A DNA stretch of 64,000 nucleotides, from NCBI GenBank assembly GCA_035297365.1, contig DATGZA010000011.1:87609-151608 (forward strand), read 5' to 3'. The position numbers and the translations under genes were made by a program. Source of the DNA: Nitrososphaeraceae archaeon (GTDB taxonomy: Archaea > Thermoproteota > Nitrososphaeria > Nitrososphaerales > Nitrososphaeraceae). This document shows positions 2,803 through 56,069 of the stretch, in pieces. The notes below the pieces were generated by a model. That model did no database searches. It was not told the origin of the DNA and saw only the letters and a program-made list of their open reading frames with translations. Position 1 is the first letter of the stretch. Every line of letters begins with the position of its first letter.

Positions 2803-2872
2803 AAAAATGTTATTGAACCCTATTAATATACGGGCTCGGAGCGCTTCGAGTTTGACATTTAGTTGGGATCTG
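2803..2872 (+). repeat. att-like composite site L2-core-RB
   Basis: AAAATGTTATTGAACC arm; CGGGCTCGGAGCGCTTCGAGTTTGACATTTAGTTGGGATC at 2831. Confidence 0.85.
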
Positions 2873-2930
2873 TCTTTACAAATTTAAACTTTAACTTTTT
2901 AAAATCAATGTGACCATTTTAAAAAATCTT

Positions 2931-3650
2931 TTACCGTACAAAAATTTTAAAACTAGCCTCCCTCATGGGATCAAATCTTGGTGGTGGACCTTCGTTACCC
3001 TTAAGCAGATCAACAACTTTCAATTCTATGTCATGTTTTCCAGGAGACAGTTCATGCAACAATAAGAAATAACCAGTAGCTAGCGCCTTATATGTGCCAG
3101 GATTGATTGTTCCCCAAATGTCTATTGGGCGCTCGGGAATCGTAATATTAAAAAAGTCAGTTTTAATTAATGATCCAGCAAGATCCACGTTTTTACCATC
3201 TACAGTAACTTTCATGTTGTTAAGGGGAGTAAGAATATTATCAGCACATTCTACTATTTCTGCATCAGTCATCGGACCAGAAGTACCACTATCACAGAAA
3301 GTCGTTGTTATTGGAAGCATGACAGCTTTACCAAGTGGAACATTGCAATTATAGTTGATCTTGCCCTCACCTGGAATAACATCTGGTAAGAACCATACAG
3401 GACCACTTTGCATTACAGAACATCTTTCAGAATCAGAATAATCCTTTACTGGATGTTTGTCGATAGGAATACCTGCCCACCACGTCCACCATTTTGCCAC
3501 CCATTCTGAATAAGGACTGTCATATGGCGAAGAATCTATTGTAAATATGTCAAAATTTGAGCTGGCTATAGTAGTAGTAATTATTCCGTTCCAACTGAGA
3601 ATTATAATAAACAGAATAGGTATTATAATTCGAACAAATAGTGGGTTCAT
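2931..3650 (-). CDS. secreted hypothetical protein (WxxKWWxW / QSGPVWFL family)
   Basis: Signal peptide, conserved Trp-rich motif, paired Cys. Confidence 0.75.
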   Translation of the reverse strand: MNPLFVRIIIPILFIIILSWNGIITTTIASSNFDIFTIDSSPYDSPYSEWVAKWWTWWAGIPIDKHPVKDYSDSERCSVMQSGPVWFLPDVIPGEGKINYNCNVPLGKAVMLPITTTFCDSGTSGPMTDAEIVECADNILTPLNNMKVTVDGKNVDLAGSLIKTDFFNITIPERPIDIWGTINPGTYKALATGYFLLLHELSPGKHDIELKVVDLLKGNEGPPPRFDPMREASFKIFVR

Positions 3651-3761
3651 AGTGAAAAGTATGTCCCTGTTCTTTATTTCTTTTTATATATAGATGTTTA
3701 TCTTACCAACAGTATCTCTAATAAACATGTTTTAGATATTAATAAATAGTAAAGTCTGAGA

Positions 3762-5126
3762 TTGCACGAATCGAAGAAAATTCAATATATTTTTAGTTCA
3801 TCAGGTCTTATTATTGTAGTAGGATTTGTAATTGTTCTACTTCATATAGTTGACATGACCGCAGGCGACACTTGGGCTTTGAACATCAATGACCGTAATT
3901 CGTTTCAATATATAATAATATATTTTATAATCACGGTGACATCACTAGTTATCCAAGCTTTCCTTCTTATGATCTCTATAAAGATAGCATTTACAACCAA
4001 GAAAGCAACCTCGCATCTATCAATGATAACCAGATACCTTTATGTAGGATCACATATGGCAGTAATGGGTTCCATTGCATATTTATTGGCAGAACAAGTA
4101 GTAACATATAGATATCATACGGTATTACTCGAGTTAATAGTAGCACTAAGTTTTATACCATCAATTTTAATCTTCATTTCATTAGCATTCAGAAATCTAA
4201 AGTCATTTTCATCCACTAAAAGAAAAATCGTTATGGTATACGGTATAGCCATAATTGCGATTGCAGTACAATTGATCATTGCCTTTTGTTATATAGAGAT
4301 CAATCTCTATAGTAAACCTGAGATCATAACTCCTGATAGGAATCCATGGGCATCCTATTTCTATACAAGTATCCAAAGTAAAATGTCCGTAAGTTATGAG
4401 ATTAGTGAGGATATTTCCTTTATTATCATATGGATGGCTTCTATATTACTTACTAAACCATATGCACAAAAGATTGGGAAAATAAAATATTCGATAACAT
4501 TGAGTGTTCCAATAATATACTTCCTATTTCAGTATTCTCCACTATTGTTGGAACAAATGGGAACATTAAGTTTTCTTGTTATGGCAGAAGGATCATTATT
4601 TTTATATTTTTACAATTTTGTTTTAAATACAGTTAATATAGGAACGGGAATATTAATTGGAATCTCATTTTACATATTATCTAGATCTTTGGTCTATGAT
4701 GATTTAAAATATTACCTGATAATATGTGGCACAGGAATCATGATTATCTTCAGTAGTGGTGTTTCAACAATCTTAACCTTAGCTCCTTTTCCAGCATGGG
4801 CTATTGTTTCCCTTTCATTTATCTTGCCAGCATCATTCCTATTTTTAATTGGGCTCGATTCAGCAACATATTATATTGCAAGTGACACTTTGATACGTAG
4901 GTATCTGTATAGACATAGGGATCAATTTGGTCTATTCCAAGCTTTGGGTTATACAAAAGCTTCCGACATTGTTGAGCAAAAGGTACGTAAACAACTCGAT
5001 AATCTCAAAGATAAAACATTTTTTGAACCAGTATATGAATTAGAAGATACGAAACAGTATATCCAGAAGGTAATAACAGAAATGAAAGAATCTGATACAA
5101 AAATAGATAGTTCAAAATCGGATTAA
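3762..5126 (+). CDS. multi-pass membrane protein
   Basis: 454 aa with about 10 hydrophobic segments. Confidence 0.7.
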   Translation: MHESKKIQYIFSSSGLIIVVGFVIVLLHIVDMTAGDTWALNINDRNSFQYIIIYFIITVTSLVIQAFLLMISIKIAFTTKKATSHLSMITRYLYVGSHMAVMGSIAYLLAEQVVTYRYHTVLLELIVALSFIPSILIFISLAFRNLKSFSSTKRKIVMVYGIAIIAIAVQLIIAFCYIEINLYSKPEIITPDRNPWASYFYTSIQSKMSVSYEISEDISFIIIWMASILLTKPYAQKIGKIKYSITLSVPIIYFLFQYSPLLLEQMGTLSFLVMAEGSLFLYFYNFVLNTVNIGTGILIGISFYILSRSLVYDDLKYYLIICGTGIMIIFSSGVSTILTLAPFPAWAIVSLSFILPASFLFLIGLDSATYYIASDTLIRRYLYRHRDQFGLFQALGYTKASDIVEQKVRKQLDNLKDKTFFEPVYELEDTKQYIQKVITEMKESDTKIDSSKSD

Positions 5127-5223
5127 TTTTCGATTAAGTTAGGAATTAATTTATGTATATAAAAAGCAATAATCAATTGTATCTACTCTAAAAATAATAA
5201 GTTTTGATCGAGATATTAATTAG

Positions 5224-5293
5224 ATATTAATAAACTTATTAATGAGGGTGCAAACAGAGGATAGTCAACCGTTTTTCACATAATTTTGTAGTT
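5224..5293 (+). repeat. degenerate att-like site L5-RA
   Basis: ATATTAATAAACT...CAAACAGAGGATAGTCAACCGTTTTTCACATAATTTTGTAGTT; matches 35560-35630. Confidence 0.65.
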
Positions 5294-5434
5294 TGATAAT
5301 TTTTGTGATTACCTTATTCCTTCCTTATTTACAAAAGACTTTGATATTAATCAAAAGTTTTGTTATTCAATTCCTTAAACACATAAAATAAGAGTAAGAT
5401 GAGGAGATGCTTCTGTAAAAAAATTTTAGGTAAA

Positions 5435-8354: not shown

Positions 8355-8427
8355 TTGATGTAAAAGAGCCTTGATACTATATGGACTCGGAGGGTAGTAA
8401 ACTGTTTTTGACACAATTTTGAAGTTC
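8355..8427 (+). repeat. att-like site L1-core-RA
   Basis: TTGATGTAAAAGAGCCTTGATACTATATGGACTCGGAGGGTAGTAAACTGTTTTTGACACAATTTTGAAGTTC. Confidence 0.85.
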
Positions 8428-8603
8428 TATATCAAAAATATCCACAAATTGTTCTTACATTCTAACAAAAATACCATCGATATCTCACTTTTGATATGGG
8501 TGTAGAATGGATGAAAAACAATAGTAAATTAGAAAATTTTACATTACTCAACTACTTACCTATTAAAAATTTTTAACGTGATACCTATAATTCTATTTAA
8601 TTA

Positions 8604-10004: not shown

Positions 10005-10078
10005 AAAAATGTTATTGAACCATACTAATATAGGGGCTCGGAGGTTTGTAAAATGATTTTGACACAATTTTGTAGTTC
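10005..10078 (+). repeat. att-like site L2-core-RA
   Basis: AAAAATGTTATTGAACCATACTAATATAGGGGCTCGGAGG...ATTTTGACACAATTTTGTAGTTC. Confidence 0.85.
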
Positions 10079-10105
10079 TATAGTTAGAAAAAATAAATTA
10101 TATCT

Positions 10106-11610: not shown

Positions 11611-11873
11611 TTCACTAAAAAGTATACTATAGGAAATTTAAAGAATAGGTTTACAAAGTATTAAAAAATAATTATTACAAGAGAAAAAAAACAATCTGCA
11701 ACGATAAATCTAAAGTAATTTAAAGCAAGAAGGAGATTGTAAAAAATCTTCCTGTTTGTAAATTAAGAGAGTTAAGTGGATATCATATCCTCGGTTATTA
11801 GTATTATATTAAAAAAATATATTTTGCATTTGAACTGAATTTAGTTATATATCAAAAACTTACAGCTGCAGAG

Positions 11874-11912
11874 AGACGATAATCAATTGATTTTGACACA
11901 ATTTTGTAGTTC
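11874..11912 (+). repeat. att-like site, RA arm (core degenerate)
   Basis: TCAATTGATTTTGACACAATTTTGTAGTTC. Confidence 0.75.
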
Positions 11913-12101
11913 ACAAAAAAGAAATGTTGTAAATTGATTAGTAATATTTGAATGCAAATTAACTAAAAATAAAGAGGCAGAACCTTACTAACTAGATGCA
12001 AAATTTCTTATACTGATCGCCCATGTAAGATGTGTTATAACCTTACTCTAAGTTTTGGTTATTGACTTGAAGATAGAAACAAAATAGAATTATACTGGAT
12101 A

Positions 12102-14137: not shown

Positions 14138-14263
14138 CTAAAAATAACCAATATTGTTATTTTTACTTTTATTCTTTTGTCTCCCTTTTTATCAATTTAA
14201 TTTAGTTTAATTATAGTATCTATAAACACTATAATTATCTTTTCCAAAGAACTTATTTCATTT

Positions 14264-14320
14264 CAAATGGTTGACGGGCTCGCAGGTGTATCAACTGTTT
14301 TTGGCACAATTTTGTAGTTC
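14264..14320 (+). repeat. att-like site L3-core-RA
   Basis: CAAATGGTTGACGGGCTCGCAGGTGTATCAACTGTTTTTGGCACAATTTTGTAGTTC. Confidence 0.85.
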
Positions 14321-14374
14321 CCTTTAGAGATATTTATAAAAGATATTTTCTTACTAACATATAGATAAACAATA

Positions 14375-17279: not shown

Positions 17280-17368
17280 AATGAATTAAAGGTTAAAAGA
17301 TCAAACATGTTGTTGTGATAATAGGGACTGGGAGAAGACTTAGAGTACGACATGTACTTGGAATTGGT
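17280..17368 (+). repeat. degenerate att-like site L4-RB
   Basis: ATGAATTAAAGGTTAAAA arm (shared with 36185) then GACTTAGAGTACGACATGTACTTGGAATTGG. Confidence 0.65.
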
Positions 17369-17551
17369 TTGTGAAAAGTATTATATATTTATATCAAAGT
17401 AATTCACAGTAATTAAAAATTATTCCCTATATTATAGTAACATAGATATTCTTATAGGAAAATAATATTGTGATTCTGTGAAAGTATTGATTATAAAATA
17501 AGATTTCAAAATAAGTAAATTCATAACTACCTTTGAGCTGTTTTAGAATCT

Positions 17552-18601: not shown

Positions 18602-18655
18602 CTATGAAGTTGAACTAATAATATCTGGTCAAAAGAATAGCATGTGTATTTTTAT

Positions 18656-18706
18656 CGGGCTCGGAGGACTTCGAATTTCTATTAAATCAGGGTTCGGTAA
18701 CATAAT
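18656..18706 (+). repeat. att-like site core-RB variant
   Basis: CGGGCTCGGAGGACTTCGAATTTCTATTAAATCAGGGTTCGGTAACATAAT; same variant at 36240. Confidence 0.8.
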
Positions 18707-19038
18707 ATTTAGGAGGATTTTCGTTATTTACTTATATTGAGGGATTAGAATCTGGAAGTGAAGATATAGAAAAAATTGAAAAGGCCTTAGAGATAAGCCA
18801 ATATTAATCTAATAATTAGATTAATCTAGTTTTATTGTTATGTTTGATAATTTGAATTACCAAATGGTTGAAAGGAATTCAAATTTATAAATGATATTTT
18901 AATAAAGTTTTAGTTGAATATAGTCAAGTGTTAAGCATTTTCTAGCATTTTCTATTATTTTTATTGTCCAAAATTTATATATTTTAGCAAGTCATAAAAA
19001 TTAAAATAAATAAAAATAAGGTAAAAAATCACTTATTA

Positions 19039-19674: not shown

Positions 19675-19911
19675 TGTAAGATTTCACCATATGTTGTAAT
19701 ACACATTACATTATATAAACCTTATTACACAATTGAGTTCGTTTAAATGATTTATTATTGCGATGAATATTTTTATTTGATGACCTATATTATGAGAAGT
19801 TATCTCTACTACTTACCTTATTATTTGACACGAGGAATAACGGCTATAGAAAAGGAAATAAATATTCTTAATTATTAACACGTTAATGATTTTATTTTTT
19901 TTTATCAATAA

Positions 19912-20036
19912 TTTCTGATAGTTGGTGCTTGTATGTCTTGATTCCTGATATCTGTAATATTCTTGTATCAAATGCCTGTTGGCATTATTGCAATCTCATT
20001 TATTTTTTTCAGAACAGTTTCAAGTTTTTGGTGCAT
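19912..20036 (-). pseudogene. tyrosine-integrase N-terminal stub (copy A)
   Basis: MHQKLETVLKKINEI/(frameshift)NNANRHLIQEYYRYQESRHTSTNYQK, homologous to stubs at 49971 and 62164; ATG ~60 bp from core at 20097. Confidence 0.55.
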
Positions 20037-20096
20037 TTACAGGTCTCTCCTTCCTGTTTTATTACAATATTCATGTATATGAAACCAGATATAGTA

Positions 20097-20220
20097 CGGG
20101 CTAGTAGGACTTGGAATTTGGCTTGTAATTGGGATCGGCTTTCTGTTATTTTATCTTACATTTTTAATATGAAGAGTTGACTAATCACAAAATATTAATT
20201 CAGTTAATGGTACTCGAACC
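20097..20220 (+). repeat. degenerate att-like site core-RB with extended tail
   Basis: CGGGCTAGTAGGACTTGGAATTTGGCTTGTAATTGGGATCGGCTTTCTGTTATTT...ACTCGAACC. Confidence 0.7.
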
Positions 20221-38017: not shown

Positions 38018-38505
38018 ATATTTTGGATTCATATAATAATGTTACACAAAGGTAGAAATAAATTTTTCTTTTATTAATTGATTAAATGATTATCATAAGT
38101 ATATTTTATATTTCTCAAGTGGTACAACAACATTAAAAATAAATTAATATGATAGAACAAGTTAGATTTTAACTTGCTATATATGGAAATTTACATCATT
38201 TGTATTTAGCTTTTTATTATGAAATCAGATACCCCCTAGAACGGATGAATACATTAGGTAAGAGGATTCGGGCGCATTATTTTTGATTGTAATTATATAG
38301 TTAAAGTCTGAATTATCAACAAGCTATTTACATACGGCTAAAACAATATAGATTATATAGATTTTAAACTATCTTCAGTTTTCAATAAATTCAAAATAAA
38401 ATTTATCATTTTTATCTAGTTCATATAAAAGAATTGTTAGATATCTTTAAATTATTGTTCACTGAAGCAAAATCGACAAAATCAAGGAATGAATTTGAGT
38501 AAATA

Positions 38506-40155: not shown

Positions 40156-40235
40156 CAAGGTGACAAATTATTAACAGAGAAGATAATAAAACTAATCAAT
40201 ACAAGAATAACAATAAAAAAAATACATCTGGTAGA

Positions 40236-42437: not shown

Positions 42438-42452
42438 TGAGGATAGAACCGA

Positions 42453-42983
42453 GTGAAAAAAATAATGAACAACAACAATAAACAAAGAATAAAAAACTTT
42501 CTTTCTGATAATTTAGTCTCATCAATTAGAATAGTAATAGTGATGATGATTTTAACAGGAATTGGTTATCCCGTTTCACTTGTAATTATTGGACAAGTGA
42601 CTTTACCCTATCAATCTCAAGGAAGTCAAATCATTTGGAATGACAAAGTTATTGGTTCTGAACTTATAGCTCAGGAATTTACATCTTCGAAATTTTTTCA
42701 CAGTAGACCAGCAACTGATTCAGCTTCTACAGTAGACCCTCATATAACACCTGAATATGCATATCAACAAATATCAAATGTAAGTAAAGCAACACAAATT
42801 CCAGAAAATGCATTGAAAACTTTAATTGACCTTAATATAGAAAGAAATAAGGTAAGTAATTTGATTGTATTTGCTCCAAAATATGTCAATGTATTTGAAG
42901 TAAATTTAGAATTGGTAAAACAATATCCTGAAATATATTCTGTACCCACAACGGAATTAGGTAAAAAAACGGATATATCATAG
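42453..42983 (+). CDS. kdpC: potassium-transporting ATPase subunit C
   Basis: LTGIGYP, GSELIAQEF...FHSRP, DPHITP, VNVFEVNLEL. Confidence 0.92.
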   Translation: MKKIMNNNNKQRIKNFLSDNLVSSIRIVIVMMILTGIGYPVSLVIIGQVTLPYQSQGSQIIWNDKVIGSELIAQEFTSSKFFHSRPATDSASTVDPHITPEYAYQQISNVSKATQIPENALKTLIDLNIERNKVSNLIVFAPKYVNVFEVNLELVKQYPEIYSVPTTELGKKTDIS

Positions 42984-42999
42984 GAGGTGATATGAGTAG

Positions 43000-43086
43000 T
43001 TGGAACTTATTGTTTATGCTTTTATTACATTTCTTTTTGTATCTTCAATTTTCTTATCTTACTCCTTGATTAAAGCAGAAAAATAA
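43000..43086 (+). CDS. kdpF: KdpF-like small membrane peptide (28 aa, TTG start)
   Basis: Hand translation MELIVYAFITFLFVSSIFLSYSLIKAEK*; AGGAGGTGA ribosome-binding site at 42982-42990. Confidence 0.6.
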   Translation: MELIVYAFITFLFVSSIFLSYSLIKAEK

Positions 43087-43351
43087 ATAGAGCTAGTTGG
43101 CTCGATATGGGGAGTTTAGATAGGTGCAGTTATATGATATTTCTTTGGTTCTAAACCTGTAATTCAAGAGTGGGACTCGAACCTTGAAGCCATATTTCGG
43201 GGTATATACGCTACATAGTTGATAAAATGTTAATGTGGAAATGAATTACGAAAAATGAAAAAATAAAGTTTAGATAAAAAGTTGATTTTTAAATTATCTA
43301 GTACTGAAAAATCAAATATATTATTAGTGAATATAGGTCTATAGACTTAGG

Positions 43352-44704
43352 TTGGATAAGGATAGAAAAAAGATTAGGTCATATTCAACTCAGGCAAAGT
43401 TATCTTTACAAGCAATCCTAAAATCTATTGGTCCAAGTATAATTACAGGAGCAGCAGATAACGACCCATCAGCCATAACAACTTATTCTCAGGCAGGAGC
43501 AAAATTTGGATTTGGTCTTCTTTGGCTAGTTATATTTCTCTATCCATTCATTACAGTAATAGTCGGTATCTGTGCAAGAATTGGTATAGTAACAGGAAGT
43601 GGTTTGACATCAATTATATCCAGAAAATATTCAAAAAAGATTGCCCTTCCAATAGTATCTCTTCTTCTTATTGCTAATATAATAAATATAGGTGCAGATT
43701 TAGGAGCCATTAGCGGTTCTTTCGAACTTTTATTTCCTCAAATTCCCATCATTATTATTTCAATAATTTTTTCAGCCGTTATCTTACTAGCAGAAATTTT
43801 CATTTCCTATAATAAATACTCAAGAATACTAAGGTATCTCACATTAACTTTACTTGTCTATTTTATTACAGCACTTATTGTAGGGGGAAACTGGAATGAA
43901 ATATTATCATCCTCTTTACTACCTCATATAGAACTATCATCAGAATTTTTGATGATGATTGTGGCCATTTTTGGTTCTGCTTTGTCTCCATATCTGTTAT
44001 TTTGGCAGACTTCTGAGGAAGCAGAAGAAGATGTTGCCAAAAATAAATTAAAGGAAATAAGAGGAGGAAGATTTGAAAAGCTGAAGATATCCAATAGAGA
44101 AATCAAATTAGTAAAAGTTGATGTGGCAATAGGGATGGCATTTGCAGTATTTATTATGTGGTCAATTATGGTAACAACTGCAGGAAGCCTTCATGCTAAT
44201 GAAATATATGAAATACAGACTGCAAAACAGGCTGCACAAGCACTAGAACCCCTAGTTAAAAAATTTCCTTATTCAGGTGAGACATCAGAAATAATTTTTG
44301 CAATAGGCATAATCGGAACAGGACTCCTTGCGATACCTGTTTTAGCAGGAACCTGTGGATATGCATTGTCTGATTTATTAGGATGGAAGGAAGGCTTAAG
44401 CAAAAAATTTAGTCAAGCAATACCATTTTATCTTGTAATACTTATCTCAACATTTATTGGGTTAATAATCAACTATGTGACTGCAATAAATCCAATTCAG
44501 ATGTTATTATATGCTGCAACTATTAATGGCATTATTTTAGTTCCAATATTAGTATTAATAATGAGAATTGCTATTGACAAGGACATACTTGGTAATAGAA
44601 TTAATGGATTATTTTCTAATGTTGTTGGCTGGTCTACTGTTATAATATTAAGTGTATCAGTACTAGCCTTTATGTTTTTAAATTTCTTTAAACTTTTATT
44701 TTGA
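43352..44704 (+). CDS. NRAMP/MntH-family divalent metal transporter
   Basis: GPSIITGAADNDPSAITTYSQAGA, SPYLLFWQTSEE. Confidence 0.9.
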   Translation: MDKDRKKIRSYSTQAKLSLQAILKSIGPSIITGAADNDPSAITTYSQAGAKFGFGLLWLVIFLYPFITVIVGICARIGIVTGSGLTSIISRKYSKKIALPIVSLLLIANIINIGADLGAISGSFELLFPQIPIIIISIIFSAVILLAEIFISYNKYSRILRYLTLTLLVYFITALIVGGNWNEILSSSLLPHIELSSEFLMMIVAIFGSALSPYLLFWQTSEEAEEDVAKNKLKEIRGGRFEKLKISNREIKLVKVDVAIGMAFAVFIMWSIMVTTAGSLHANEIYEIQTAKQAAQALEPLVKKFPYSGETSEIIFAIGIIGTGLLAIPVLAGTCGYALSDLLGWKEGLSKKFSQAIPFYLVILISTFIGLIINYVTAINPIQMLLYAATINGIILVPILVLIMRIAIDKDILGNRINGLFSNVVGWSTVIILSVSVLAFMFLNFFKLLF

Positions 44705-44844
44705 TATAAATAATATATTCCAGGCCAGGATTCGAACATCAAAAACGCATTCCGCTAGATTGAAATCTAGCAAAAATAAGTGACAGAACATACAAAGACA
44801 TAAAATAAAATTACAAGTTGCTTGTAACAATACACCGGCATACC

Positions 44845-45237
44845 ATGAAATGTTTGTCATTAAAACAGCCTTTTGCAGACCTTTTAGCTCATGGTGAAAA
44901 GACAATAGAGCTAAGAAAATGGAATACTTCATTCCGAGGAGAATTTCTAATTCATGCTTCAAAAACTATCGATATAGAATCCTCTGAAAGACTAGATATG
45001 AATAGCAACAAGTTTACAATAGGAGCAATAATAGGTTCTGCTTTTCTATATGATGTTAAAGAATATAGTAATCGAGAAGAATTCGAAAAGGATAGACACA
45101 AACACTTTTCTGTGATTACCAAGTATTTTGAAGGTTATAGATATGGTTTCTTGATTAGAGATGCAAAGTTGTTAAAAAATCCAATCCCTTATCCAGGCAA
45201 GTTAAGATTCTTTGAAGTTGATGAAAATATAATTTGA
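44845..45237 (+). CDS. ASCH domain protein
   Basis: MKCLSLKQPFA...GEKTIELRKWNT.FRGEFLIHAS; likely start at ATG 44845. Confidence 0.88.
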   Translation: MKCLSLKQPFADLLAHGEKTIELRKWNTSFRGEFLIHASKTIDIESSERLDMNSNKFTIGAIIGSAFLYDVKEYSNREEFEKDRHKHFSVITKYFEGYRYGFLIRDAKLLKNPIPYPGKLRFFEVDENII

Positions 45238-45463
45238 AAATAATATACAACAGTGTCATATCTTCTGCAACATCCAATAGCTAAATCTAATTGTTAAAAT
45301 TACTTAAAGTTATAATACCTATTATAATTTTAAATCATAAAAATTAGGTTGCTAATATTATAAAAATTTATACTTGAAGATACTATTACTTATTCTGTTG
45401 TTTCACCAAAATAATCGTGGTCTGATTTCTTTACCGAAATAATTAATGATAGTTTTCATTCGT

Positions 45464-45718
45464 TTATGACTCCTCTTCTCCTACGGGTTCTCTAATTGCT
45501 TGAATCTGTCCGCTTTTGAACTGAGTGTCGATAGAGACCCAGAGAGGTTTTTCATATCTTAATATATTTATAATATCATTAAACCTATCTATATTATAAA
45601 AAATATCAAATGTTCCATCTTGGTTTATGATATTCTTAGGAAGAGGTGACTCGTCTACAAATCTAAGTGTGCCGATACTGTTGTTGTCCTTATCGGAGAG
45701 GTGTATATATGCACTCAT
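45464..45718 (-). CDS. hypothetical protein, probably 5'-truncated by RA site
   Basis: RFNDIINILRYEKPL...EPVGEEES; the ORF-track N-terminus MQNCVKIS is just the RA repeat read on the minus strand. Confidence 0.5.
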   Translation of the reverse strand: MSAYIHLSDKDNNSIGTLRFVDESPLPKNIINQDGTFDIFYNIDRFNDIINILRYEKPLWVSIDTQFKSGQIQAIREPVGEEES

Positions 45719-45732
45719 TCTAGGCACTGGCT

Positions 45733-45769
45733 GATGATTATCACTGATTTTGACACAATTTTGCATTTC
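45733..45769 (+). repeat. att-like site, RA arm (core lost)
   Basis: GATGATTATCACTGATTTTGACACAATTTTGCATTTC. Confidence 0.7.
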
Positions 45770-46048
45770 AGAAAGTATTGTTACTATTAATTCAAAATAT
45801 AAAAATCAATGCAGACTTTTTGGATAGTTGGGATGAGTTGTAGGTCTTTTTAATAATCTAAAATTGAGGAATAAACTTAATTACCGTAAAGTTATTTTGC
45901 GCTTAAATCTTTCTCAATACTTGAAAACTCTTTCAATCATAACTAGGCCGGCTCTAAAAATAGAGAAGCAACCCCTGCCAACATATTTTGTTAATTTAAT
46001 TTCAGTAATTAAATGAATAAAATTAGGATGATTGATAACTAATGATCT

Positions 46049-47059: not shown

Positions 47060-47101
47060 GCGATATATTATAACGATATTATTTCACTTGCAACTACAAT
47101 A

Positions 47102-47144
47102 CGGGCTCGGAGGGCTTCGAGTTTGACATGTAGTTGGGATCGGT
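47102..47144 (+). repeat. att-like site core-RB (consensus copy)
   Basis: CGGGCTCGGAGGGCTTCGAGTTTGACATGTAGTTGGGATCGGT. Confidence 0.9.
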
Positions 47145-47162
47145 AATCTTGTTTTTATATTT

Positions 47163-48107: not shown

Positions 48108-48887
48108 TTAAGGTCTCAATGGTGGATTGTCAAAACATTCTACATCGGGAGTGACGAAACCATTTCCACTATTTATTCCAAATACTGTAATATTCCATCC
48201 AGTATGAGTAGCCAACGGTTCACTTGATATTAGTAGAGGTATTGCGGGAAGTAAACCTGGTTCGGGGATGCCAATTTGCCCAACTTCAAAACTTCCACTT
48301 AATGCTGTGTCGCCTGGGTCACAATTCGCTACTGCACTACCAAAATCACGAGTAAAAATCCTGTCGTTAGTTTCACCTACATTAGTATAGACGTTAGTAG
48401 GGTTTATTGTGCTAGGACCTTGTGGAAGCTCATCCTTTAACTGTTCGTTGTCATTAGCATTTACACAAACATTTACTAGATTTCTGTCAAAGTTTATTCT
48501 ATCTGCAAGTCCGTTACCATTCTCTGTATTTGCTGCTTCTGGACCTCCTTCATTTGCTGCTCCTAAGGCAGTATTGTCGTGAGGTATCTCGGTAACATCT
48601 ACACCATTTACGTTGACGTTACTATTTCTACAATTTATTTTCTGGATATCTCCATAACTTTTTGAATCTTTTTTATCGTAACTATACCTATTGTCGTCTT
48701 GATAATAGTAGTTGCTATCATCTCCATATTGATCACCATAGGAATGTCGATCATCATAATCTCCACTGCCATATGGCACTGCTTGTGCATTTGTAATTGT
48801 TGACGGGTTCAGAGCCAATATACTTGTCGCTAGTATTGCTCCCAGTACAGAAGCAAAAACTATCATTCTATTGTTACTATCGGTCAT
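48108..48887 (-). CDS. secreted CxNxNxNVNG-family protein with C-terminal A.C..GD.ALSG domain
   Basis: Signal peptide, Y/D-rich segment, QKINCRNSNVNVNG...DRNLVNVCVN, C-terminal CFDNPPLRP. Confidence 0.85.
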   Translation of the reverse strand: MTDSNNRMIVFASVLGAILATSILALNPSTITNAQAVPYGSGDYDDRHSYGDQYGDDSNYYYQDDNRYSYDKKDSKSYGDIQKINCRNSNVNVNGVDVTEIPHDNTALGAANEGGPEAANTENGNGLADRINFDRNLVNVCVNANDNEQLKDELPQGPSTINPTNVYTNVGETNDRIFTRDFGSAVANCDPGDTALSGSFEVGQIGIPEPGLLPAIPLLISSEPLATHTGWNITVFGINSGNGFVTPDVECFDNPPLRP

Positions 48888-49023
48888 TACACTATTAAAT
48901 ACGAATTTAATATATCTGTGGTTGGAAGGAACATTATCTAATCTTGTAATATTTTATCATGCTGAATTATTGACTATAAGAAGAATAGAAAATGATGTTA
49001 AGGTGGAAAGTGAAATCCTAGCA
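48888..49023 (-). promoter_or_regulatory. motif C leader, copy 4
   Basis: Aligns with copies 1-3, 5, 6; directly upstream of ATG 48887. Confidence 0.8.
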
Positions 49024-49087
49024 TTACAGCAACCAATACAGGTCCACGAAAGACCCAAGATAAGAAATAATATCAGCATGACTAGCA

Positions 49088-49109
49088 TGGAGGGGATGGG
49101 ATTTGAACC
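49088..49109 (+). repeat. tRNA 3'-end-like remnant
   Basis: Reverse complement GGTTCAAAT-CCCAT-CCCCTCC-A. Confidence 0.5.
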
Positions 49110-49186
49110 AGTTACGTGCATTCACTGGTTTGTGCAGTTCATACTAAAGAAACAGATAGAAACTAAAATTGAAGAATTATAGATAT

Positions 49187-49363
49187 TTAATCTTCAAAGA
49201 AAGGTCTATGTTGAACATCGAAACCTGGAGATATATTTGCAAATTGCATTATTGTGATCATTTTGCATATTTTGTCCTGTAACTCTGAATGTTCAATGAA
49301 TTTCTTTTTACAAATAGGACATTTAGTTTCTTTTCCTACATTCATAATGATACTATCGCTCAT
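49187..49363 (-). CDS. small zinc-finger-like protein (58 aa) behind motif C
   Basis: Hand translation MSDSIIMNVGKETKCPICKKKFIEHSELQDKICKMITIMQFANISPGFDVQHRPFFED*. Confidence 0.5.
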   Translation of the reverse strand: MSDSIIMNVGKETKCPICKKKFIEHSELQDKICKMITIMQFANISPGFDVQHRPFFED

Positions 49364-49499
49364 TACATTGTTAAATACGAATTTAATTTATCTAAGGTTA
49401 GAAGGAACATTATCTGATCTTGTATTATTTCAACATTCTGAATTATTGACTATAAGAAGAATAGAAAATTATGTTAAGGTAGAAAGTACAACCCTAGCA
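49364..49499 (-). promoter_or_regulatory. motif C leader, copy 5
   Basis: TACATTGTTAAATACGAATTTAATTTATCTAAGGTTAGAAGGAACATTATCT...GTTAAGGTAGAAAGT. Confidence 0.8.
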
Positions 49500-49970
49500 C
49501 TGCTCCACCCAACCTGGTAAGTTCCCACGAAGAAAGAATATGGCTAGAATAATAAATTAATTAATGTATAATTCTAAAAAAGGAATAAGAATAAAATTTT
49601 ATCAAAGAATCTATAACTAATGTTTTTATTAATACATATATATGATGAAATCAGCGATTAAAAAGTTGTCCACCTGAAAGAGTTGTCCTGATACATAAGA
49701 TGAAAAAGTTTTGCAGGAAAAATACCGGAGTTATTTATACTGGTATTATAGTTATTCAATTTGATCTAAATTGTTACTCATTTTATGTCATCTTTAATTG
49801 ATCAAATAATATTTTTATAATTCAAACTTATTGATTGTTATCATGTTAAAGAATCTTTATCGTATTAGTATAATGTAATATTGGATATAAAAAGAATAAT
49901 GATAATCTTGACCATATATTAAAGATATATTATTCTATTATAAAAAATCGTTTCCAACATACATAAAAAT

Positions 49971-50098
49971 ATCGTTTTGATACCTTTCAGAAGTTCGCTG
50001 AGATACTAATATTCATAAAATTCAATGAGCAAAGTAGCATTATTCCTGTTTGCAAGTGCATCTACTTTTTTCAGAATATTTGCTAACTTTGTTGGCAT
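49971..50098 (-). pseudogene. tyrosine-integrase N-terminal stub (copy B)
   Basis: MPTKLANILKKVDALANRNNATLLIEFYEY..(frameshift)..RTSERYQND; resembles thaumarchaeal integrase N-termini (recalled, not searched); ATG 59 bp from core at 50157. Confidence 0.65.
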
Positions 50099-50145
50099 CT
50101 TCCTGATGACTCCTGTTCACTTCTAGTATCTATAGTATATGAGCC

Positions 50146-50202
50146 CAATTGGTTGACGGGCTCGGAGGATTGTCAACTGTTTTTGACACAATTTTGTAGT
50201 TC
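50146..50202 (+). repeat. att-like site L3-core-RA (consensus copy)
   Basis: CAATTGGTTGACGGGCTCGGAGGATTGTCAACTGTTTTTGACACAATTTTGTAGTTC. Confidence 0.9.
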
Positions 50203-50280
50203 AGAATAAGTATATACTTCAAAGAAGAATGAATGATTTTTAATATGGTTTATAATAATTTCATCTTACTAATAATGCTA

Positions 50281-50715
50281 ATGGTAGAAATGACCAAAGA
50301 TGAAATCCAAAATTTTCTTTTAAAAGACACTTTTACAGGGAAACTCGGGACAATTAACAAGAATGGAACACCTCATGTCGTCACTATTTGGTATACTTTA
50401 GATGAGGAAGATAATATTTTATTTAATACCGATTATAATTCAGTAAAAGCAAAAAATATTCAACGTGACAATCGAGTTCGTTTATGTGTAGACGATCAGA
50501 CTCCTCTTTTCTCATTTGTTACTATAGACGGTATAGCAGAAATAATTAGTAAAGAACCAAGAGAAGTTTACAAATGGGCTAAAATTATTGCGGCAAGGTA
50601 TATGGGAAATGATAAGGCAGAAGAGTATGGTAGGAGAAATAGTTCAGAAGGTGAACTATTGATAAAAATAACACCAACCAAAGTTATCGGTCAAAAAGAT
50701 ATAGCAGGATGGTAA
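50281..50715 (+). CDS. PPOX-class F420-dependent oxidoreductase, copy 2
   Basis: Close paralog of 35704-36138; start taken at ATG 50281 by alignment. Confidence 0.9.
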   Translation: MVEMTKDEIQNFLLKDTFTGKLGTINKNGTPHVVTIWYTLDEEDNILFNTDYNSVKAKNIQRDNRVRLCVDDQTPLFSFVTIDGIAEIISKEPREVYKWAKIIAARYMGNDKAEEYGRRNSSEGELLIKITPTKVIGQKDIAGW

Positions 50716-50785
50716 ATTAATTCATTTTTTCATAGTTGGATTTATTTATAATTTTTAAATTACATATTTAAAAATCGGTACACCA

Positions 50786-51122
50786 GTTGTTGATGTTATA
50801 TTGGTTCTGAGGTCTTGGAGTATGTCATGTAATTGGGATCGGTTTTCTGTTATTTTATTTTACTTTGTAATATCAAGATCAGTGTGAAGACAATATGTTA
50901 ACTCGGGCAGTTGAATTCGAACTCCTAAGGAGTAGAACTGGATTTGTATCAATTAAATAGATGATATATTTGCTTCTAGATCTAACTATTTTTAGGATCA
51001 GACATTACATCAATATACCTGTAAATATTCTCTATTATAAATAAAGATAAACCACTTTGTTGTAATTATAATTGCGATTACATCCTCATGCGGCACCGTG
51101 TGTTTCCGGAACGAAGAAAGTG
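50786..51122 (+). repeat. att-like site L4-RB plus ~280-bp non-coding tail
   Basis: GGTTCTGAGGTCTTGGAGTATGTCATGTAATTGGGATCGGTTTTCTGTTATTT...ATGTTAACTCGGG...TTCGAAC...TCTATTATAAATAAAGATAAAC...TCCGGAACGAAGAAAGTG; matches 55770-56069. Confidence 0.8.
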
Positions 51123-51213
51123 GACATTTGTCGACCACTTTCTACTCCGGAATTACTGATAATTCTTGATATTAAATTCTTGATATCGCTAGAATAACGA
51201 TAGATTAATTAAT

Positions 51214-51414
51214 TTAGATAAGGTCTTGGACTATACGACCACAATCATGACACTGTAACCAGTCATAACAGTCATGTGGTAGTTCTCCATTGATTAATTC
51301 CTCTTTTTTGTATAGCCGTGGAATTAATTGAACATAAATTCCCACTTCCAGACATCGAGGACACCAGCTCGTATTAGGAATATCTACTGGACTTGGTTTA
51401 TCTAACATTGACAA
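51214..51414 (-). CDS. small zinc-ribbon protein
   Basis: WCPRC...LQCHDCG. Confidence 0.6.
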   Translation of the reverse strand: MSMLDKPSPVDIPNTSWCPRCLEVGIYVQLIPRLYKKEELINGELPHDCYDWLQCHDCGRIVQDLI

Positions 51415-51627
51415 GGGATACCACTAAACTAATAAAATTATATATGTATAATGATACAATATTTCAAAATTATTTTATATTTGGGTTGCAAGAAAGATGT
51501 GAATGTTGTCTTAAATTAACATCCATCCATGAAAATCTACATGTATGGTGGTTATCTTTTGTATCCTTTTTAGCCCCCATTTTGTTATGTCTTTCTATCT
51601 ATTAAGCATTGGAGACAAGAACCTCCG

Positions 51628-51900
51628 CTATGTAGAATCTTTGTTTATAACAAGCATCTCTTTTGTTGTTGCTACTATTACTTTGCCATGTGCTTTTCTC
51701 CGTTTGATTCTTTCATAAAATGTTCTCATGTGATGGTCATATCTTCCTGCGGATAATGAACACTGTACTAGTATCCATCTCAGCAAACGAGAACCATGTT
51801 TGGCGATTCTATCTGTTTTTGTTTTTCCAGATGATTCTCTTGTTGATGGTGCAAGTCCTGCATAACTAACAAGTTTCCAGGGTGTTGCAAATAATACCAG
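51628..51900 (-). mobile_element. IS110-family transposase C-terminal remnant
   Basis: KLVSYAGLAPSTRESSGK...KHGSRLLRWILVQ...FYERIK...KVIVA. Confidence 0.85.
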
Positions 51901-52152
51901 GCTATTGAGTACATGGATTCTAAAAATGATCAATTAATTTTAGTATTATTTTTCAATCTGAAGACATTGATTTGTTAAAATAAATCTTTTAAAATTAAAT
52001 AATTCATTAAAAAATATTCAATATATAGTCATTACTTCAGTTAACAACAAATATTCAATATTTTTTAAAAAAATTTTAACTGCCAAAATATAACATCATA
52101 TGAAATAATCATTACAATATAGTTAAGTGATAAAGATAGAACTACTATTTGA

Positions 52153-53568
52153 TCATATATCATCTATTCGCATAAGTAATAACTGACCTCCTTCGTATAG
52201 GGTATGTGCTTGAGTATCTAGTAACCATGTTCCAGGACCAAAAATATCGGATGTTTCAATTATACCACTTGATTCCCATTGACCACCTAGAGATGAATTT
52301 GTTAAACTATCAGATTGATCAACTATAGCTACAGCGGTTAAAGTATTGCTGTTAAGGTCATATTTCAATATCCTTGCATTGACTCCGCCGTCAAATTTGT
52401 TGTAATCATTTAAGTCTTCTTGTATCATTAAGCTTTTATCACTAGTGGCTATGTTGTCTGGATTCCTTATATCGTCACCTACTTCATCGCCATCCAAGAT
52501 TATAGAAAAAGTTGTATTAAAGCTATCATTTGTATTTCCATTTTGATATGTAATGAGCTTTGACACATCAAACTTGTATATTCTGCCATTTTGATATTTA
52601 TCACCATCTACTTCTTCAATACCACCAGTATCAGCCAGATATATTATCAGCTTGTTATTTTTATCATAATCGATATCTTCCAACCTAATAAAATTTAGTG
52701 CATTTAATTCTTGAACCTCGTTTTCAAGATCAGTAGAATTTTGTTTTTTCCAATCCCAATTTACCGGCTCAAAATGACCTTGGTATTGATATCCTTTTTG
52801 AAGATCTCTGAAACTTGAAATATTATTATCTCCAACAAGGACATATAACTGGCCCTGTCCTCTTAGAAAATTATCAGTGGTATTGGATATAAATGCATAC
52901 AATTGAGATTTATCATAATCGCCATCTTCTGTAGCTACTATTACTGTTTTATTGTATCTATTTGGAACAACTATAGTATTTTCATGTGAATAAAGTCCAA
53001 GCCAAGGCATCTCTGTTTTAGCCCCACTTACTATGTCATAAGCAACTACAAGTCCATTATCATGTTCTTCATTCGTTAGGAATATAGGATTTTTAAATCC
53101 TTCCTCTTTTACTAATGTTGCCGAACAAAAATTTTCATATTTTCCAGATCCATCTTCAACTAATTTTCCTGAGAAAACTTTACCATTTTCAGTTGTAGAT
53201 ATTTTAGAAATTTTTGCATATTCATTCACTTCATCTAGCATTAACTCATGATTTACAAAAATATCTATCAAGCCAGTGTTATCATTTTCAGTTACTCCAA
53301 TTCCATCTGGTATGCGTGGAAATGTGAAACCAGATGGAAGTATATCCCCGGAGGTTATAATAGGTTTTATAAAACTATTTCCTGGAGATATAACTTGAAT
53401 ATGAGGTTTTTCTTTTGTAGAAAATAGATTGGTCATATTTACTAAATTTGTAGAATTATCATTTTGCTGTGCATAAATATCTGATATAAATACTATCGAT
53501 ATTAAACTAACTATACCAATTGATATCAAAATATAGGTTGTACAAAAAGCAATGTATGTCTTAATCAT
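52153..53568 (-). CDS. PhoX-family (DUF839) alkaline phosphatase-like secreted protein
   Basis: PDGIG, VNHE, FCSA, SHEN, RLEDI, NPDNI, IQED, WESSGII. Confidence 0.8.
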   Translation of the reverse strand: MIKTYIAFCTTYILISIGIVSLISIVFISDIYAQQNDNSTNLVNMTNLFSTKEKPHIQVISPGNSFIKPIITSGDILPSGFTFPRIPDGIGVTENDNTGLIDIFVNHELMLDEVNEYAKISKISTTENGKVFSGKLVEDGSGKYENFCSATLVKEEGFKNPIFLTNEEHDNGLVVAYDIVSGAKTEMPWLGLYSHENTIVVPNRYNKTVIVATEDGDYDKSQLYAFISNTTDNFLRGQGQLYVLVGDNNISSFRDLQKGYQYQGHFEPVNWDWKKQNSTDLENEVQELNALNFIRLEDIDYDKNNKLIIYLADTGGIEEVDGDKYQNGRIYKFDVSKLITYQNGNTNDSFNTTFSIILDGDEVGDDIRNPDNIATSDKSLMIQEDLNDYNKFDGGVNARILKYDLNSNTLTAVAIVDQSDSLTNSSLGGQWESSGIIETSDIFGPGTWLLDTQAHTLYEGGQLLLMRIDDI

Positions 53569-54057
53569 TGGATTCGTGTATATATAGATAAATTAATAAA
53601 TTGCGTAAATTATCTATGTTGTCTATCTACTTCTATTTAGAGAGCTATATAATTTTTCAAATGGCTTGGGTAGACAATAGACATAAAAAGTATATATATG
53701 TTTGAATTATTGGAACAAATTAGATAGTCTATATTCCTACGTGTATTATAAAAAAATACTCAGATCTAACGTATAACAATGTTAATTGATTTCTAAAATC
53801 ATTATCTAGATTCATGTACAATCTTTATAAAAATATGCAAAACTGGTTCAACAACAATACCAGCAAGGTTAATACAATATAATATTGGATATTTTCTATC
53901 CTTCATCCATTGATCCGATTTAGAGAATATTTTATATAATTTGTTTCGTTCTAAATTTAAGGTTGAAATCAATATCATAACTGGTTAATAAAACTTATTT
54001 TCAAGATTACAAAAAAATGGCAAAAAAATAACATTACACAACGAATTTTTAAATTCA

Positions 54058-54599
54058 TTCCAATACATCCCAAAGGCCATGTTCTTTACCAAAGGTAAGT
54101 GAATTCATATAGATTACTTAAATAGTTTCGAGCTTACCTTACGTGATGCAAGGATCTCAGAACTCAATATTGTAACTGCTTCTGGTATCTAATCTCCAAA
54201 ATGTAAAATCATAACTATTTCAGAAAGAAGAAAATATCCTATCCCTAGACAATTTACTTTCGCTGTCATTGCAAGATCATCTACCAATGAATCTAATAGA
54301 TTAATTGCTGCCTCAATTGGACTAGCAAATCGTAAAGAAGAGGAAAATACGGATATTTATCAGAACGTCATGCTACAAGAGAAACAGCTCCGAAAGCTGG
54401 AAATTATGCTGAAGATATGGCAGCAGAAATGTTAGCTACAACTATGGGTCTTCCACGATCCTTCTTTAAAATGGGATGATAAATATATCAATGGAGGTAT
54501 CAGGTAAAACTTACAAGGGCAAAATTATATCTAACCTGCCGAAGGTATATGGATGGATCGTGGTCCACAGTTCTAAGTGCAGCAGTTTTCATCCTTTGA
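54058..54599 (+). pseudogene. pdaD: pyruvoyl-dependent arginine decarboxylase pseudogene
   Basis: YIPKAMFFTKGK*IHIDYLNSFELTLRDA...NRLIAASIGLA...[15 protein letters not shown]...WSTVLSAAVFIL; several stops and frameshifts. Confidence 0.85.
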
Positions 54600-54809
54600 T
54601 GAGTAAATAATGTATGTGTTTTTGATTACAAATCTTGTTTAATTAATAAAAAAATGGAGGAAAACTCTATCTTCGATTTCTAAAATTGGCAGTAGTATTA
54701 TTGTTTACAGGAGAATAATTTTGGGTAGCTCTTTATATAAAAATTGTGAGAAAAGATTGTTGTAACTTAGGATCAATTTAATATCATTCAAAATGTAAAA
54801 ATTATAATA

Positions 54810-55286
54810 ATGGTCATAATAGAATTCGTTACTGAAAACGAAATAAAATTTCTAATTGGAATAGGTATTTCTCTATTTGCTGGATTTGTTATCGGAATCG
54901 AACGAGAAGCAAAAAAGAAACCTACCGGGATAGGTACTATTACATTAGTAGTAGCAGGTGCAATGATATTCACTAATCTTTCAAATATTGTGGATCCAAA
55001 TTCTACCTCTCGTATAGCTGCTCAAATAGTTACAGGTATAGGATTTTTAGGAGCAGGAATTATTATTAAAGGACCTGAAACCACTAAGGTAAAAAATGTT
55101 ACCACTGCAGCCACGGTATGGTTTGCTGCTGCAATAGGAATGGTAATTGGTTATGGTTTTTATCTAATAGCAATAGTCTTAGTAATTTTTGCTGCAACGG
55201 TACCCAGAATACCCAATATTACTGATCTAAATTTCTATAAAAATAAAAAGACAATGTCAAACAACATACAGGATGATGATATTTAA
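54810..55286 (+). CDS. MgtC/SapB family membrane protein
   Basis: IGIERE..KKPTGIGT, SRIAAQIVTGIGFLGAGII, TTAATVW. Confidence 0.92.
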   Translation: MVIIEFVTENEIKFLIGIGISLFAGFVIGIEREAKKKPTGIGTITLVVAGAMIFTNLSNIVDPNSTSRIAAQIVTGIGFLGAGIIIKGPETTKVKNVTTAATVWFAAAIGMVIGYGFYLIAIVLVIFAATVPRIPNITDLNFYKNKKTMSNNIQDDDI

Positions 55287-55372
55287 TGCAATTTTTAATG
55301 CGTTTAAAATTTTGTCGTTATACAATTCCTTTCCTTCCTTTCTATAATTGCTGATCTATCTTCCTGATGCTG

Positions 55373-55586
55373 TTAAGTTAAGACTATTTCACCTCCAATT
55401 TTGGATACAATTTTGTTTCTTATTTTTGCGTTATACAGATAAACAAATAATTTGATCCAATTGTATACATGCTTTACATCACATTTTATACTATTCTTGG
55501 TACATGGATAGTAGCCATCAAAACATTCTGTTCTATCCTTGAAATACTGCATCATCCTTTCAATCAGACTTTTCTCAAATGGTGAG
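55373..55586 (-). mobile_element. IS6-family transposase C-terminal remnant
   Basis: SPFEKSLIERMMQYFKDRTECFDGYYPC...HVYNWIKLF. Confidence 0.75.
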
Positions 55587-55742
55587 TTTGATTTTACATA
55601 CTTATGAGTATCGTTATTTCTTTTGGATCTTCAAGTTATCTGCTAACTTATGATAAACTTATAAAAATGTTATTTTTGATCAAAAGAAATATATATTTAT
55701 CTCTGAATTGTTGTATTTTCTATAAAATATATTGCAAATCAT

Positions 55743-56069
55743 TTGATGTAGCAGAGCCTTGATATAATACGGGCTCGGAGGGCTTCGAGTATGACATGTA
55801 GTTGGGATCGGTTTTCTGTTATTTAATTTTATTTTTTATTATCAAGAATAGTGTAAACACCAAATGTTAACTCGGGGGCTATGATTCGAACCCTACCCAA
55901 AATCTCAGGGGTTAATATCAAAAGTATCAATACGTAATTCAGTTATTTAGATCAATATAACTACACATATTTTCTATTATAAATAAAGATAAACTACTTT
56001 TATCGTAATTGCTTATACAATAACCTTCTTATCGACTACTCGGCTTGTATATCCGGAACGAAGAAAGTG
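55743..56069 (+). repeat. att-like site L1-core-RB plus non-coding tail
   Basis: TTGATGTAGCAGAGCCTTGATATAATACGGGCTCGGAGGGCTTCGAGTATGACATGTAGTTGGGATCGG; tail homologous to 50841-51122. Confidence 0.88.

Follow-up and report, generated by a model that had tools for sequence, protein, structure and literature searches.

What kind of process places one intergenic repeat many times on a single strand of an archaeal chromosome, with the left and right flanks of the repeat in changing combinations? This question is raised by a 64,000-nt stretch of contig DATGZA010000011.1 (C11, positions 87609-151608) of a Nitrososphaeraceae archaeon, referred to here as the window; coordinates are those of the window unless marked C11 or with a genome (G0xx). 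The source genome, G000, is an assembly of 2.52 Mb in 110 contigs with 30.5% GC, and it encodes both TBP and an archaeal AmoA, which identifies the organism as an ammonia-oxidising archaeon; a search for rRNA genes found none in the assembly. The metagenome runs that contain window DNA are mostly labelled as soil. Ammonia-oxidising archaea of soil drive nitrification, and the ways in which they acquire accessory genes are poorly described. The analysis presented here makes it likely that the window is the variable part of an additive island of more than 100 kb, produced by repeated site-specific integration at the 3' end of tRNA-Arg(TCG).

The repeat is approximately 85 nt long and intergenic, and the window contains 19 clear and 2 weak copies, all on the plus strand, with neighbouring genes on both strands and with distances of 644 to 10,140 bp from site to site. 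A left arm and a right arm flank a shared core, CGGGCTCGGAGG(GCTTCGA); the core pattern GRCTCGGAG is matched exactly eight times in the window, always on the plus strand, versus 0.06 matches expected. A fuzzy motif search detects 10 right arms of a family RA and 9 of a family RB on the plus strand, and on the minus strand a single RA match with four mismatches, which is at chance level. Profiles built from the window copies were run with nhmmer on the whole 2.52-Mb genome at a cut-off of E<1e-3, and 33 sites were obtained. Of these, 28 are located on C11 (40.4-143.4 kb, all on the plus strand), 19 of them in the window, and the other five are on contigs C6 (two), C26 (two, weak) and C60 (one).

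The left arms form at least five multi-member families, and the right arms form two main families, RA and RB, and a third, RC. A first-pass annotation of the window had proposed that the two sets of arms are shuffled across the core, and the individual joins on which it relied are largely present in the sequence. Arm L1 (GATGTA..AGAGCCTTGAT) precedes RA at 8355 and 21168 (junctions 8366-8432, nhmmer RA E=6.9e-16, and 21177-21243, E=1.2e-17) and RB at 55743 (55750-55817, nhmmer RB E=3.1e-19), and arm L2 (AAAATGTTATTGAACC) is followed by RB at 2803 (2811-2876, E=9.9e-16) and by RA at 10005 (10017-10082, E=3.9e-16). L3 (CAATTGGTTGA) or an L3-like arm is joined to RA three times, at 14264, 28643 and 50146 (14261-14323, E=2.4e-15; 28638-28703, E=4e-16; 50140-50208, E=3.7e-20, with a perfect core). 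L5 is joined to RA at 5276 (5233-5298, degenerate core, E=1.5e-10) and 35612 (35569-35635, core CAAACGGAGG, E=2.7e-14), and L6 is joined to RB at 17348 (17305-17370, degenerate core, E=7.3e-11) and 50823 (50780-50847, core GGTTCTGAGG, E=7.6e-13). The pairing of L4 with RB is found at 27884 (27900-27963, E=8.6e-12) and 32756 (32775-32837, E=5.2e-15), both with degenerate cores; the third case that had been counted is not, the L4 arm having been found only twice.

The remaining junctions extend these combinations. L7, an integrase-proximal type, is joined through the core to RB at 20078-20144 (E=1.3e-13), and unclassified left arms are joined to RA at 11856-11916 (degenerate core, E=1.2e-12) and 45709-45774 (core lost, E=2.4e-11) and to RB at 26041-26107 (E=2.8e-15) and 47085-47148 (perfect core, E=5.4e-18). 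The two weaker sites carry RC: at 18641-18720 (nhmmer RB E=0.0046) the right arm (..CTTCGAATTTCTATTAAATCAGGGTTCGGTAACATAATAT) equals the right arm of an intact integrase element in the sister genome G017, and at 36214-36290 (E=0.047) an L6-like arm and GGTTCTGAGG precede an RC-type arm. By number of joins, L1 is connected to RA four times and to RB once, L2 four times and twice, and L7 once each.

The similarity of the arms was evaluated with 40-nt arms against a same-contig background, the threshold being the 99.9th percentile (score 13), with 528 pairs per side. Above this threshold are 25 of the 528 left-arm pairs and 268 of the 528 right-arm pairs, and the similarities on the two sides are uncorrelated (Mantel r = -0.053, with 0.87 of permutations at least as high). 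These results indicate that the shuffling is real and that AT-richness is not its cause, and both the incongruence of the flanks and their similarity beyond an AT-rich background, on which the first-pass claim depended, are thereby borne out. The switch of homology at the core, also part of that claim, is observed directly: homology between copies begins or ends at the core, and within C11 an RA site and an RB site that both have L1 arms are homologous up to the last core base, 55781.

The arms contain recurrent short motifs. TGACA and TGTAGTT are common to RA and RB, RA holds GTCAA-N6-TTGAC, and L3 terminates in GTTGAC; judged from the sequence, these may be protein-binding motifs of attachment (att) sites of the attP type. 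The open reading frame (ORF) that follows RA is on the plus strand in 8 of 10 cases, and the one that follows RB is on the minus strand in 7 of 8 (Fisher p = 0.015). In this respect the RB and RC cassettes resemble the integrase-bearing layout, in which the cargo is co-oriented with the integrase, and the RA cassettes represent a second class. When the genus was surveyed with a 26-nt RA pattern at up to three mismatches, the pattern was found in 23 of the 24 other species genomes, with many copies perfect or at one mismatch and arranged in same-strand clusters; it was found in none of 16 genomes of other families and in none of 5 genomes from three other genera of the same family.

The origin of the core is evident from its identity with a tRNA. 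The core is the reverse complement of the 3' end of tRNA-Arg(TCG), with 19/19 nt at RB sites (tRNA positions 57-75) and 12/12 nt at RA sites (positions 64-75); the full 19/19-nt identity is found by blastn at 47085-47148 and at 55750-55817, where the core is perfect. The near-complete sister genome G017 (3.5 Mb, 10 contigs), which was used for the recombinase search and for synteny, contains a complete tRNA-Arg(TCG) at G017:C10:1147352-1147426, as located by aragorn. Upstream of an integrase gene in G017, an L3-type arm is followed by CGGGCTCGGAGGGCTTCGATCCCACG..., which is the reverse complement of this complete tRNA. The corresponding element measures 4.6 kb between 20-nt direct repeats, one copy of which is the end of the intact tRNA, and it consists of the 20-nt repeat, the RC arm, a SIR2-like gene, a 154-aa ORF, a 436-aa integrase, the L3 arm, the second 20-nt repeat and the tRNA, in this order. 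The far repeat lies between an L2 arm, which belongs to the adjoining element, and the RC arm of the element itself. This is the anatomy of a classical tRNA-targeting integrative element. In a further genome, G012, the island is situated immediately downstream of this tRNA locus, the left flank of which shows synteny with both G017 and contig C93 of G000. Behind a degenerate copy of the tRNA, this genome has weak sites, oriented as expected, and cassettes with homology to window positions 2917-5131. Separately, an intron-containing tRNA-Arg(TCT) at G000:C79:7124-7216 has a 3' end that differs from the array core by one mismatch, and it is a possible secondary target.

The integrase of the G017 element is a 436-aa tyrosine recombinase (L016:4485-5795) whose start codon is located 44 nt from the site. 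In the relatives, intact copies of this family begin 44-70 nt from the left arm, and on C11 only remnants are present, on the minus strand, with starts 69-71 nt to the left of the cores at C11:60533, C11:107715 (weak, E = 0.003) and C11:137775. In the window, the remnant at 49965-50098 (tblastn E=3.7e-12) retains residues 1-30 at 93% identity and residues 31-45 in another frame, and its start is 69 nt to the left of core 50167 in the junction at 50140-50208, the L3 arm of which is of the integrase-proximal type. A weak remnant at 19900-20036 (residues 1-46 of the L042 type, tblastn E=0.003, in two pieces) starts 71 nt to the left of core 20107, and a third at 62146-62292, also on the minus strand, covers residues 1-49 at 78% identity (tblastn E=1.6e-15). 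A GC-rich patch of 300 nt (62300-62600, 52-57% GC in a 30% GC genome) is present at the 5' end of this last remnant and occupies the position expected for an att site.

Members of the family comprise 436-468 aa, match PF00589 weakly (26-28 bits) and match the PHROG_1 integrase at 4.5e-14; a sequence search of the PDB with the integrase returned chance matches only (E about 0.9). All eight full-length copies contain the motifs R (ARPHE), KTG, LRHS and RYIK and a C-terminal CxxC...CSKC zinc ribbon, and the conserved R, K, R-H and Y are the putative catalytic residues. A coiled-coil-like tail follows the CxxC...CSKC motif in this family. Of the 24 other species genomes in the genus, 21 have matches at E<=1e-10, a large share of which are N-terminal fragments; in an order-level sample, 20 of 81 genomes match (G000 counted), and near-full-length copies with 56-61% identity are found in a second genus of the family. 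In all 16 integrase 5' regions (12 genomes), TATGA(A/G)CCC is followed after 11-13 nt by an acceptor-stem-like GGG.... Two of the 16 run into RA arms, that is, into the neighbouring cassette, and several run into other complete tRNA genes (by eye), which suggests that subfamilies target different tRNAs. Read by eye, a fragment at 49078-49115 of the window (plus strand, GGAGGGGATGGGATTTGAACC; …GGGATTTGAACC…) looks like the reverse-complemented terminus, on the 3' side, of some other tRNA; it lies approximately 190 nt upstream of the start of a gene for a secreted protein and may be what is left, within the array, of an att site used by another integrase subfamily.

Other candidates for a recombinase of the array were set aside. 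The 468-aa integrase on C12 shares 23% identity with the array integrase and is located beside tRNA-Thr. The repeats at 28457-28646, 48840-49073, 49339-49541 and 61432-61626 had been considered as integrase remnants, and they correspond instead to 5' ends, with the DNA upstream, of genes of the secreted-protein family described below. The ORFs upstream of the first site include no recombinase, and they encode instead a GAF regulator, an NHL protein, glyoxalases and an MBL-fold protein.

The DNA between sites behaves as discrete cassettes. The clearest case is a 0.65-kb unit, the E-cassette, composed of an RA arm, a PNPOx-like ORF (Pfam PF01243) and an L6 arm, which is present at window positions 35591 and 50163 and at G017:1316128. 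By self-blast, copy 1 (35591-36269, plus strand, ORF 35704-36138, with an L6-like arm) shows 84% identity to copy 2 (50163-50841, plus strand, ORF 50233-50715); the L5 junction at 35569-35635 and the L3 junction at 50140-50208 form their left edges. The three contexts have three different left arms upstream and three different sequences after the cassette's own GGTTCTGAG end. C11 is collinear with G017 over its first 40 kb and over the first part of the array, 40-85 kb, with identities of 86-96% (92-94% for 40-85 kb). The window's cassettes are found again in G017 in another order (C11 to G017: 93021 to 1309840, 96194 to 1365857, 98166 to 1320654, 101899 to 1309368, 102280 to 1313997, 123199 to 1316134, 141565 to 1340916 and 143253 to 1312166), and several of the alignments begin exactly at a core. 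A 3.26-kb cassette at G017:1241904-1245164 does not occur in G000, and the empty junction of G000 consists of the left arm of the left G017 junction and the right arm of the right G017 junction. An MFS gene with a homologue in G017 (84% identity) was dismissed as a case of cassette transfer, as it has no flanking sites.

Assembled contigs from four soil runs of four studies were compared with the window at 90% likeness. In all four runs, there are contigs that match the core and RA only as far as 50156/50158 and continue there with other arms of L2- or L7-like type, and the 5-kb cassette at 50811-55780 is bridged by one contig each in runs X6 and X7. Most of the metagenome joints have sides shorter than 30 nt and probably reflect repeat artefacts, and the zero depth over 51476-55213 in X6 and X7 was not used by itself as evidence.

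These observations are consistent with the following scheme. An incoming circular element would contain an attP in which a core of 12-19 nt, copied from the tRNA 3' end, separates a left (P) arm from a right (P') arm, and a tyrosine integrase of the Nitrososphaeraceae-specific family would recombine this attP with a resident core, with the crossover presumably inside the core. Every interior junction would then be a hybrid of the P arm of the left element, the core and the P' arm of the right element, and such hybrid junctions account for the independent assortment of the left and right arm families and for the switch of homology at the core. New elements would enter at the tRNA-proximal end, and the majority of cassettes, which contain no integrase, may have moved in trans or together with a neighbour. 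The first-pass annotation had already interpreted the sites as hybrid att junctions of consecutive elements, and this interpretation gains support from the tRNA-end core, the linked tyrosine integrase family, the integrase element of G017, the single cassette with varied neighbours, and the cassette-sized indel whose junction lies in a site. It is refined here in that the arms are supported as the attP-type P and P' arms of the cassettes and that most cassettes are without an integrase.

The arrangement of the island in G017 (loci L016, L047-L049, L009-L015 and L050) bears on the point of entry. On G017:C10, sites at 1147441-1169988, adjacent to the tRNA, are on the minus strand, as expected, those of the main array at 1176660-1359042 are on the plus strand, and a site at 1361906 is again on the minus strand. 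One internal inversion of approximately 190 kb could produce this pattern. If it is undone, the variable, window-homologous part would come to lie closest to the tRNA, with the conserved part at the greatest distance, as expected if elements enter at the tRNA.

Several observations weigh against repeated integration at the tRNA. The large array of G017 is inverted relative to the tRNA and its right end has no tRNA, so the inversion must be assumed. A tRNA scan of the window yields zero tRNAs, and an intact tRNA-Arg(TCG) was not found in the G000 assembly, so that the anchor is inferred from the relatives. An intact integrase of the array family was likewise not found in G000, where only fragments with stops occur; a PF00589 search of this genome gives four matches, none on C11, and only 3-4 of the 28 junctions on C11 have an integrase remnant. 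As only integrase fragments are found, the system is probably inactive in G000 at present. Many cores are degenerate, two of the three inspected indels between G000 and G017 end away from cores, and in our tabulation the type of right arm at the start of a cassette is uncoupled from the type of left arm at its end. The metagenome joints are weak, with sides of at most 30 nt, one contig each and 90% likeness.

Some of these points would equally be expected if the sites were former att sites or dispersed repeats that are now shuffled by homologous recombination through their 40-90-nt arms, with no ongoing site-specific recombination. Arms of this length and similarity suffice for homologous recombination, the absence of an intact integrase from G000 and the two indels with ends away from cores suit this explanation, and at the clean indel the overlap (C11:46255-46283) falls within RA, which prevents an assignment of that crossover to the core. 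The switch point, in contrast, is constant at the 11-13-nt core rather than scattered in the arms: on the left side homology extends to 55781, on the right side it sets in at 35591/50163 and at C11:101899 and C11:123199, and the metagenome contigs break at 50156/50158. The same arms also adjoin intact integrases in relatives, and homologous recombination alone leaves unexplained why unrelated cargo is framed by the same arms. As the sole process it is therefore improbable, and as a contributor to the shuffling of sites created by integration it may play a part.

A structured non-coding RNA, a promoter or terminator module, or a miniature inverted-repeat transposable element (MITE) is a much less probable source of the repeat. 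The inverted repeats GAGCC..GGCTC in the left arm and core and GTCAA..TTGAC in RA could be taken in its favour, as could the strand bias of ORFs after RA and RB, which suggests that the arms may also carry expression signals. The Rfam scan of the window, however, gives no family at the gathering score, and no consistent stable fold is obtained. The GA(A/G)CC motif varies, and the core shows no compensating change. A hairpin or pseudoknot of GAGCC/GGCTC with the start of RA was also considered, and folding gave no support for it. All copies are on one strand of one region regardless of the direction of the neighbouring genes, the alignments reveal neither terminal inverted repeats nor target duplications, and the core is a tRNA end with a linked integrase. 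Least credible of all is an integron-type array, with IntI acting on folded attC sites or as a cluster of attC sites lacking an integron integrase (CALIN): the one-directional array of short repeats between cassettes of mostly one to three genes recalls it, and integrons with canonical attC sites occur in archaeal metagenome-assembled genomes as reported in PMC9668308, but only one of six sites folds as single-stranded DNA better than shuffled controls (z = -2.70; the rest -1.22 to +0.96), neither the R''/L''-L'/R' symmetry nor a GTTRRRY/RYYYAAC pair is seen by eye, the core is a tRNA end, the linked recombinase resides inside elements beside the left arm rather than at a fixed attI and no IntI is found, and the genes are on both strands.

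Repeated integration at the tRNA-Arg(TCG) 3' end thus remains the preferred explanation, and the locus would then exemplify a concrete mechanism of gene acquisition, in which a single tRNA-anchored site accumulates dozens of cassettes. The array system is conserved across the genus, and its content varies between species. A bolder version, which we advance tentatively and consider less likely than not, is that the island is a tRNA-anchored, integron-like capture platform of a new kind. Single-gene cassettes that lack a recombinase and have strongly conserved P' (RA, RB, RC) and P (L1, L2 and others) arms would be moved in trans, with the integrases on a minority of cassettes excising, capturing and reordering the rest. 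If mobilisation in trans of the integrase-less cassettes is real, ordinary att sites of the tRNA type would have given rise here to an archaeal system functionally analogous to integrons, and if the platform operates in this way, a whole genus of soil ammonia oxidisers would share an exchangeable pool of accessory genes.

The cargo is accessory in character. Transport proteins include MFS, KdpA/KdpB, Nramp and MgtC, and the enzymes comprise zinc alcohol dehydrogenases, a luciferase-like monooxygenase, a Rieske/FMN reductase, PhoX-like and purple-acid-type phosphatases and a methyladenine glycosylase; a cyclase-receiver protein, HSP20, a Vgb-lyase-like propeller and Kelch and BNR repeat proteins are also encoded. 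The largest cassette (35595-45735, 10.1 kb) contains KdpA, a KdpB-type P-type ATPase and an Nramp transporter. A secreted-looking paralogous family is represented at 48108-48887 (minus strand) and 29424-29900 (plus strand), with 73% identity over 97 aa, and further DNA copies are located at 1814-2334 and 61432-61626 and at C11:39611, C11:67270 and C11:71941. Its members have a signal-peptide-like N-terminus and a Tyr/Asp/Gly-rich region and occur in many cassettes in both orientations, in G017 as well; no Pfam match was found for the family, and the Atlas lead reaches only 0.78. Two further genes contain internal repeats: approximately ten tandem units of 150-165 nt at 33203-34816 lie in a 666-aa ORF (33241-35241, minus strand) with weak BNR/Asp-box matches, and 18-nt tandem repeats at 22302-22413 and 23451-23544 correspond to acidic runs in the gene of a 475-aa PsbP-like protein (22331-23758, minus strand).

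Among known systems, the closest are the tRNA-targeting integrative elements. Elements with tyrosine recombinases build arrays by re-use of one site, as described in PMC6563490, in which the name Nitrosocosmicus does not occur, and tRNA-gene islands with integrases are the subject of Islander (PMC4383910). The island shares with such elements an att core that is a copy of a tRNA 3' end, an integrase beside one att site, flanking direct repeats and arrays from site re-use. It differs in its at least 28 junctions over more than 100 kb on one contig, in its predominance of 0.6-5-kb cassettes without an integrase and with well-kept P and P' arms, and in a nearly invariant RA arm in 23 of the 24 species of the genus. 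The other known arrays of this kind have 2-4 junctions. In streptococci, integrative and conjugative elements (ICEs) undergo accretion, in which recombinase-less cis-mobilizable elements (CIMEs) and integrative mobilizable elements (IMEs) with att flanks persist in tandem with integrase-bearing elements and could be moved in cis or in trans; in the present island, by contrast, no conjugation genes are seen, and the units are far smaller and far more numerous. The integrase also differs from the suicidal, SSV-type integrases in that its full-length ORF is intact when the element is integrated, the site being located 44 nt upstream of the start codon.

The tycheposon islands of Prochlorococcus are seeded at tRNAs and contain scattered partial tRNAs and integrase fragments, as stated in the preprint (10.1101/2020.12.28.424599). 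The features described there that are shared with the present island are the displacement of older elements from the tRNA by newer ones, cargo for nutrient and stress functions, and a chromosomal inversion linked to elements. The present island is distinguished by its archaeal host and a different integrase family, and the sole intact element examined (G017, 4.6 kb) contains no replication module and encodes the integrase, a 154-aa ORF without a family and SIR2_2. Its junctions, in addition, keep long conserved arms on both sides, so that the island reads as a regular cassette array. One-directional arrays of short sites, small cassettes, integrase-less arrays and accessory cargo are shared with integrons and CALINs, including those of archaeal metagenome-assembled genomes, whereas the attC hairpin, IntI and the attI/Pc platform are lacking, the att site is of the double-strand type and derived from a tRNA end, and the integrase rides on some of the cassettes. 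Unlike a MITE or another dispersed repeat, 28 of the 33 sites are on one contig and a single strand, and no terminal inverted repeats are visible. A literature search, supplementary tables aside, returned no description of such an array in Nitrososphaeraceae. The mechanism is an ordinary one; its scale, the regular layout in cassettes and the presence of arms conserved throughout the genus on single-gene units that lack an integrase appear to be new.

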